This document shows positions 44,131 through 45,179 of a stretch of DNA of 64,000 nt, in pieces. Made by a program: the position numbers and the translations under genes. This DNA is from an uncultured bacterium (lineage in GTDB: Bacteria; Patescibacteriota; Minisyncoccia; UBA6257; 2-01-FULL-56-20). Under the pieces are notes generated by a model. It did no database searches, had not been told where the DNA came from, and saw only the letters and a list, made by a program, of their open reading frames with translations. Location of the stretch: positions 728,108 through 792,107 of the forward strand of contig OY970358.1 in NCBI GenBank assembly GCA_963718575.1, given 5' to 3'. Each line of letters begins with the position of its first letter. The first letter of the stretch is position 1.

Positions 44131-45179
44131 ATGGACTACGCCGAACAACTTAAGGAATTGGATGCCGAAGCTCGCCAACTGGGCGAGCGTCTTTGACCTC
44201 GCGGACAAACGAAAAAAGATCGCGGAACTTGAGGCGGAAATGTCATCCGCGGGTTTTTGGAACGATCGGCAGAATGCGGATGTGAAAATTCGTGAGCTCG
44301 GCGAACTGAATGAAGTGGTTTCGAAATACGAGATCGTGCGCGGCGGCATTGATGCGTCTCAAACTCCAGTTCGATGAAAATATCTTTCACGAAGTGAAGC
44401 GCGCGTTCCGCGAGTTCGAGCTGACCCAGCTTTTTACCGGGCGCTACGATAAACAATCTGCCGTGCTCGCGATCTATCCGGGCGCGGGCGGCGAGGACGC
44501 AGAGGACTGGGCGACGATGCTCGGCGTGATGTACGAAGGGTATGCAAAGCAACGCGGATGGAAAACCCGCGTGGTGGACGACAATCCGCGCTCGTACACG
44601 ATCGAAATCGCTGGCGCGTACGCATATGGTTATTTAAAAAACGAACAAGGGGTGCATCGTTTGGTGCGCATCTCGCCGTTCAATGCAAAGCATTCTCGCG
44701 AAACATCATTCGCGCTCGTGGAAGTCGTGCCCGATTTGCCCGCGCTCGATGAATCAAAGCTGCAGATTCCGGAAAGCGATTTGCGATTTGAATTTTCCCG
44801 CGCCGGCGGCCCCGGCGGGCAGAACGTGAACAAAGTGGAGACCGCCGTGCGCGTGGTACACGTTCCGACGGGCATCGCGATCAGTTCGCGCGCCCAGCGC
44901 TCACAGCAGCAGAACCGCGAGCAGGCGCTGAAAATTTTGAAGGCGCGGCTTTTCCAATTGATGGAGCAGGAAAAAGTGGAAGAGGTCGGCGCGTTACGAA
45001 CGAAGGTGAAGCCCGAGTGGGGGAGTCAGATCCGTTCGTACGTTCTGAATCCATATCAGATGGTCAAAGATCATCGCACCGATGCGGAAACTTCGCGCGT
45101 GGATGAGGTGTTGGCCGGAAATATCGACATGTTTATCGAAGCGATGCTGGAGAAAAAAGCATCTAGAAAAGGAGATTAA
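44131..45179 (+). CDS. prfB: Peptide chain release factor 2, with the programmed +1 frameshift site plus a second apparent +1 frameshift
   Basis: ORF0 [21 protein letters not shown] ends at 'CTT TGA C' (44191-44197), the canonical RF2 autoregulatory site. The +1 frame continues [14 protein letters not shown]...[11 protein letters not shown] further +1 switch (~44335-44375) is needed to reach ...[28 protein letters not shown]...[11 protein letters not shown]...[20 protein letters not shown]... (the GGQ motif). Confidence 0.85.

Follow-up and report, generated by a model that had tools for sequence, protein, structure and literature searches.

The prfB gene at positions 44131-45179 of the 64,000-nucleotide stretch of DNA that we analysed (the window; all positions are counted from its first letter) is an ordinary one, from a Patescibacterium of the Paceibacteria type, and in the deposited sequence it encodes RF2 across three reading frames. 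The first of the two +1 changes of frame is, judged by its sequence and its conservation, the canonical RF2 autoregulatory frameshift, which is known biology. The second very probably reflects an error of consensus or assembly in the deposited 881,652-bp contig, and neither a recoding event nor a trace of RF2 loss. We consider an error far likelier than a real mutation, because the insertion that causes the second break is private to one contig, and four more of its kind lie in the window.

The gene lies on the plus strand, as do all parts of prfB and all insertions described below. ORF0 (44131-44196) runs from the ATG at 44131 to the CTT at 44191-44193 and has 21 sense codons counting this CTT, followed by an in-frame TGA; it is conserved in other species and identical in the same-species contigs. 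Beyond the programmed site (CTT TGA C, 44191-44197), the +1 frame is open from GAC at 44195 up to a TGA at 44375-44377, and its part at 44195-44354 encodes RF2 residues 22-74, the N-terminal part of domain 1, identical to the product of the same-species contig L099. The remainder of RF2, comprising the end of domain 1 and domains 2-4, is found at 44358-45179, one more +1 step on. This third frame stays open between 44310 and the TAA at 45177-45179; the remainder counts about 270 residues and contains the SPF tripeptide (44673-44681) as well as GGQ (44814-44822). If the sequence were real, the frame entered at the programmed site would close with an out-of-frame tail, SQTPVR, and a premature TGA (44357-44377), leaving an 81-aa N-terminal fragment; the product called here on the deposited contig, P0405, has 71 aa. 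A preliminary description, made from the sequence of the window, had placed CTT TGA C after a 20-codon ORF0, had expected a second +1 switch around 44335-44375, and had taken this switch to be probably a single-base insertion outside the known mechanism. Twenty codons do precede the CTT, the frames force the second change into 44310-44377, 160 nt downstream of the programmed site, and the insertion is supported by the absence of the base from four same-species assemblies.

The stitched RF2 translation matches thousands of RF2 proteins. Identity is 85-92% for the best of them, which derive from metagenome bins of Paceibacterota/Patescibacteria and have the domains PF03462 and PF00472. The need for a second change of frame does not arise by chance: the junction is crossed in a single ORF by 118 of the 120 closest RF2 homologues, and the closest of these read GID[A/G]LKLQFDEN across it. 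Alignment to relatives, which the preliminary description had proposed as a check, places the junction at one surplus base, 44355/44357. Compared with the DNA of five relatives of other species, the window has one base too many in GATGCG[T]CTCAAA (T44357; GATGCG-CTC in the relatives), and compared with the same-species contigs the extra base is C44355 (GATG-GTCTC); these are alternative descriptions of the same 1-nt surplus. At the break the window reads ATT GAT GCG T CTC AAA (over a longer stretch, GATGCGTCTC), and five nucleotides upstream of the surplus base it carries a private SNP, T44350, where the other same-species contigs have C. The loop that follows the junction (44358-44372, RF2 residues ~76-80, between LK and FDEN) is a hotspot of length variation in this clade of RF2: in 29 of 118 homologues an indel lies no more than 12 residues from the junction, and most of these are insertions into the loop, up to 19 residues long and often rich in Gly and Ala.

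Four same-species contigs, from four independent assemblies and four samples, cover the break, and all of them read ATC GAT GGT CTC at the site. Three of these contigs differ from the window only by T44350C and a 1-nt gap at 44355: L099 (JGI 3300041431; 3,678 bp, 99.95% identity), L100 (ENA ERZ27250077; 2,285 bp, 99.91%) and L104 (JGI 3300041415; 1,048 bp, 99.81%). The RF2 ORF of L099 comprises 258 codons and stays open through the break site up to the end of the contig. The fourth contig, L094 (JGI 3300077762), is about 99% identical to the window across prfB and is likewise in frame at the site, with GATG-GTCTC.

Exact-sequence look-up in a collection of about 15 billion proteins identified P0405 (71 aa) and P0391 (275 aa, from the ATG at 44352) as the frameshifted products of the deposited 881,652-bp contig, which is held by both NCBI and ENA. 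The two products were found on one contig only, and neighbouring proteins of the same genome were found on 3-4 contigs of other origin. The exact look-up of the 289-aa ORF and of the neighbouring protease returned no match; the deposited RF2 product starts at ATG 44352 instead. A scan of contigs with RF2 returned generic RF2 peptides, the best among the matches listed being 71% identical. A DNA pattern across the junction with the base made optional had no matches among metagenome contigs; the pattern held the private T44350 and the GCG allele, so it could not match the same-species sequence ATCGATGGT.

Two of the same-species contigs are visibly rich in errors. L094 (contig Ga0645788_1680) has many indels relative to the window, its RF2 is split into pieces of 86, 57 and 151 aa, and its FtsX is split as well; its identity to the window alternates along the contig between ~99.9% and 96%, suggesting that it combines several strains in a mosaic. 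In L095 (ENA ERZ25039484, contig_71755), the alignment to the window contains 110 gap columns over 21 kb, and DnaG is broken into four. Indel artefacts are evidently common for this population.

The programmed site itself is invariant. CTT TGA C is unchanged in all five relatives of other species that were aligned, and it is identical in the four same-species contigs, which confirms the preliminary identification as the conserved RF2 autoregulatory frameshift. The autoregulatory +1 frameshift of prfB has been surveyed across bacteria (PMC12421855, PMC11463598), and its motif consists of a slippery CTTT, an RF2-specific stop and a 3' C (PMC12421855). As in E. coli prfB, a short ORF0 is closed by an in-frame RF2-specific UGA, the slippery CTT T is present, a C follows the stop, the site is strictly conserved among relatives, and the +1 frame codes for the rest of RF2 including SPF and GGQ. 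The cycle would then be the familiar one: a shortage of RF2 would slow termination at the in-frame UGA, and the peptidyl-tRNA-Leu would slip from CUU to UUU at CUU UGA C, so that full-length RF2 is made. Once the surplus base is taken out, a full RF2 can be read in the +1 frame, with PCRF and RF-1 domains, SPF and GGQ; as given, this frame is broken at 44355. The gene differs from that of E. coli in the length of ORF0 (21 codons here and 25 in E. coli), and the second frame break has no counterpart in the prfB autoregulatory system.

A further difference concerns the stimulator upstream of the slippery codon. The E. coli type of prfB has an AGGGGG-type SD-like element, whereas this lineage has GGGCGAG or GGGCGGG, with weak anti-SD pairing. 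In the window, the G-rich GGGCGAG (44181-44187) lies 3 nt upstream of the CTT, in the place of the E. coli stimulator. We took the anti-SD as canonical, the organism's own 16S 3' end lying outside the window, and on this assumption a purine-rich SD-like element (consensus AGGGGG, 3 nt upstream of the CTT) could not be convincingly recognised: the duplex of GGGCGAG with the anti-SD has -4.6 kcal/mol, compared with -4.0 ± 2.8 kcal/mol for random 17-mers of the window and -10.7 kcal/mol for E. coli. The gene starts in the window have a mean of -2.4 kcal/mol with the anti-SD, only one of 23 reaches -7 kcal/mol or lower, and 22 of the 23 lack a Shine-Dalgarno match. The frameshift here either needs no help from an SD-like element or relies on a non-canonical anti-SD. 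For specialists, a lineage without SD use whose frameshift site lacks the otherwise hyper-conserved SD-like stimulator may be of interest.

The use of UGA bears on whether RF2 could be dispensable. Among 54 likely genes in the window, 27 end in TAA, 14 in TAG and 13 in TGA, and RF2 is therefore required. The genes ending in TGA include atpB and atpF, which stop where their homologues do, and no in-frame TGA was seen inside the conserved genes that were aligned to relatives. These observations confirm the earlier reading of UGA as a stop codon that is not recoded to Gly. Gracilibacteria and Absconditabacteria have lost RF2 and reassigned UGA to Gly (genetic code 25), and the present case resembles those lineages in that the organism belongs to the Patescibacteria group and its prfB frame is disrupted in the record. 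An RF2 on its way to being lost through a similar reassignment of UGA has in its favour only this affiliation and the broken ORF. In this organism, unlike in the code-25 lineages, UGA is in use as a stop and prfB is strongly constrained and intact in other same-species assemblies. The autoregulatory UGA site is also strictly conserved. We regard the probability of this alternative as negligible, and RF2 loss with UGA recoding, which the preliminary description had named as the outcome that would overturn its reading, is excluded by the stop-codon usage in the window.

There is likewise no sign of decay in the protein itself. The RF2 repaired by removal of the surplus base has 348 aa and shows no deviation at any of the 132 columns conserved to 98% or more in an alignment of 120 homologues. 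Downstream of the break, dN/dS is 0.025-0.06 in comparisons with four relatives, at a dS of about 1. This strong purifying selection also argues against RF2 loss through UGA reassignment.

The surplus base in prfB is not the only one in the window. A codon-usage frame scan followed by homology checks located further breaks, which together with that in prfB make five private insertions in conserved genes of the same contig, the essential single-copy genes among them being leuS, broken twice, and prfB. An extra T at 11481 (GTG[T]CAC) splits a DUF11 surface-protein gene (8529-11970), and an extra C at 12734 (ATA[C]GCG) splits a gene for a CAP-domain membrane protein (12086-13163). Both are absent from the same-species contig L096 (JGI 3300041431, 19,611 bp), which has a single gene in each place, of 1124 aa and 358 aa respectively, and which matches the window at 7330-26942 with 99.959% identity and exactly two gaps, both of them extra bases of the window at 11481 and 12734. 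The leuS gene (32658-35116) is spread over three frames by two private insertions, one an extra C at 33084 (CAG[C]TTC) and the other a complex insertion at 34402-34403 (ATCATGCGGC) just before KMSKS, where the same-species contig L089 has ATC-CGCGGC and other species have ATCATG-GGC; each causes a +1 break. L089 (JGI 3300041431, 8,488 bp) encodes an intact LeuRS of 818 aa, and against the window at 31533-40022 it shows 99.80% identity and exactly two gaps, both extra bases of the window and both at the leuS breaks. The fifth insertion is the extra C at 44355 (ATG[C]GTC). Clean same-species contigs cover about 33 kb of the window, and over this length the window has five insertions and no deletions.

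Several other arrangements that might have been taken for frameshifts or read-through were rejected. The same-strand ORF pairs 27353/28609 and 53218/53933 and the sets 58727/59817/60731, 29481/30095/30550 and 38958/39806/40336 are separate genes, with complete domains or signal peptides of their own. Adjacent in-frame ORFs separated by 12-nt gaps are ordinary gene boundaries. A paralogous CAP gene (47425-48405) was dropped as a reference for the break at 12.7 kb for its different architecture, and a homology search was used instead.

We considered the case in which the insertion in prfB is a real, very recent, strain-specific mutation, so that prfB would be a fresh pseudogene or would be expressed as two pieces, an 81-aa N-terminal fragment and an RF2 with truncated domain 1 started internally at ATG 44310 or 44352. 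The deposited sequence does carry the surplus base, the private SNP five nucleotides away points to a haplotype of its own for the window's strain, and the ATGs at 44310 and 44352 are in the third RF2 frame. Furthermore, N-terminally truncated RF1 and RF2 retain codon-specific release activity in vitro, and a truncated RF2 might do so as well. Neither internal ATG has a recognisable upstream signal, which counts against internal starts, although the genome itself does not use SD. Weightier is that such a mutation would have to be present alongside four further private frameshifts in 64 kb, of which two lie in the single leuS gene, one of these just before the catalytic KMSKS; a reduced-genome organism could not survive that. 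Clean same-species contigs have none of the five insertions, UGA serves as a stop, and no relaxed selection is seen. A reduced-genome cell cannot carry the two leuS frameshifts and the prfB frameshift together while using UGA stops. A real mutation is therefore improbable, and more probable than any of the other alternatives to an artefact that we considered.

A second programmed recoding event would require a ribosome, RNA polymerase or editing activity that compensates for the extra base, for instance by quadruplet decoding or a +1 shift at GCG-U. Alternatively, the +1 shift would fall downstream, at CGA UGA A. In favour of this second place, the out-of-frame stretch closes with an RF2-dependent UGA only six codons on, and a shift at CGA UGA A would give a protein of the same length with six residues changed in the length-variable loop; all five breaks of the window are, moreover, in the +1 direction. 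Against such a shift stands the conserved LKLQFDE, which is encoded in the new frame directly after the insertion, so that the change of frame has to fall on the inserted base itself. The break is not conserved among orthologous sequences, being absent from the four same-species contigs, from the five loci of other species and from 118 of 120 homologous proteins. Nor is the sequence GAU GCG U CUC prone to shifting: there is no tRNA re-pairing in the +1 frame at GCG U, nor at CGA U, and no homopolymer that would allow transcriptional slippage. No shared motif or shift-prone context was found among the five breaks (GTG[T]CAC, ATA[C]GCG, CAG[C]TTC, ATC[AT]GCG and ATG[C]GTC). We consider recoding at this site very unlikely.

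It is less credible still that all five insertions are genuine in the DNA of the strain and that functional LeuRS, RF2 and the other proteins are nevertheless made. This would need the skipping of one nucleotide at non-slippery sites, either in the transcript, through deletion of a base, or at the ribosome, through a +1 step independent of context, and we know of no mechanism in bacteria for such skipping.

The artefact that we favour would have a simple counterpart in the organism. The real sequence at the site would be ATC GAT GGT CTC (I-D-G-L), or, in a haplotype that occurs alongside, ATT GAT GCG CTC; either way the ORF would be continuous, and translation would need no mechanism to get past a second break. 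The error probably originated as a half-applied complex variant at a strain-variable spot: the GCGT of the window resembles the allele GCG followed by the last base of the allele GGT, and a column-wise consensus or polishing over mixed strains could retain the insertion and miss the matching deletion. The aligned alleles clearly suggest such a hybrid at 44355 in prfB, where GCG of other species and GGT of the same-species contigs would have given GCGT, and again at 34402 in leuS, where ATG of other species and CGC of L089 would have given ATGC. The sites at 33084 (C and T giving CT) and 11481 (TCA and CAC giving TCAC) are compatible with a half-applied variant, without pointing to one. Half-applied variants would account for all five defects being insertions and for none of them extending a homopolymer.

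Indel errors that fragment genes are a known class in draft assemblies and in those built from long reads or mixed strains; they can be detected against references, as is done by Kastor (PMC12007338), and sequencing errors form one class of the frame transitions treated by GeneTack (PMC3711429). The break in prfB resembles known assembly indel errors: an indel of one base splits a gene whose conservation is otherwise perfect, only one assembly has this indel and independent assemblies do not, and further breaks lie nearby. A difference is that every one of the five defects is an insertion. None of them lengthens a homopolymer either, which is untypical of nanopore or 454 errors and speaks against an error, as does the SNP that the window's strain has of its own five nucleotides upstream of 44355. 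A further difference is that at least two of the sites resemble hybrids of co-existing alleles and not random miscalls.

The surroundings of prfB are shared with related contigs, the common order being tatD, leuS, a gene with an LTD domain, a protease, two rRNA methyltransferases, tRNAs, prfB, ftsE, ftsX, a CAP-domain gene and ATP synthase. The spacer between tatD and leuS (32152-32657) is unusually long in the window, with ~500 nt compared to 43 nt in the relative L001, and holds an 88-aa ORF on the minus strand (32311-32577) that has no family assignment and is also called in the same-species L089. Upstream of prfB there are five tRNA genes at 40801-43782 (Ser-TGA, Ala-GGC, Arg-CCT, Ser-CGA and Thr-CGT), and a gene of the Peptidase_A4 family on the minus strand (42597-43622) is interleaved with this cluster. 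Between prfB and ftsE, the relative L086 (GCA_035509435.1) carries a DGR-like pair of bAvd and reverse-transcriptase genes (12240-13586), and in its place the window has a 172-aa ORF (45232-45750) with a repeated, coiled-coil-like LAxRLDxRIDNL motif. Farther downstream, about 14 kb between the CAP-domain gene and atpB (48410-62260) are absent from the relatives L001 and L088 and partly present in L086; this block encodes secreted proteins (with fn3, Big, dockerin and cohesin-like matches), a protein of the class A beta-lactamase family and a methyltransferase.

These results serve as a quality flag for the deposited 881-kb Patescibacteria contig, which in this window has approximately one gene-breaking insertion per 7-13 kb. 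The insertions make prfB, leuS and other genes look like pseudogenes or split ORFs. Taken at face value, the sequence could be misread as RF2 loss, as a change in the genetic code or as a new recoding event, and this risk of misreading concerns a lineage in which changes of the code are genuinely interesting.
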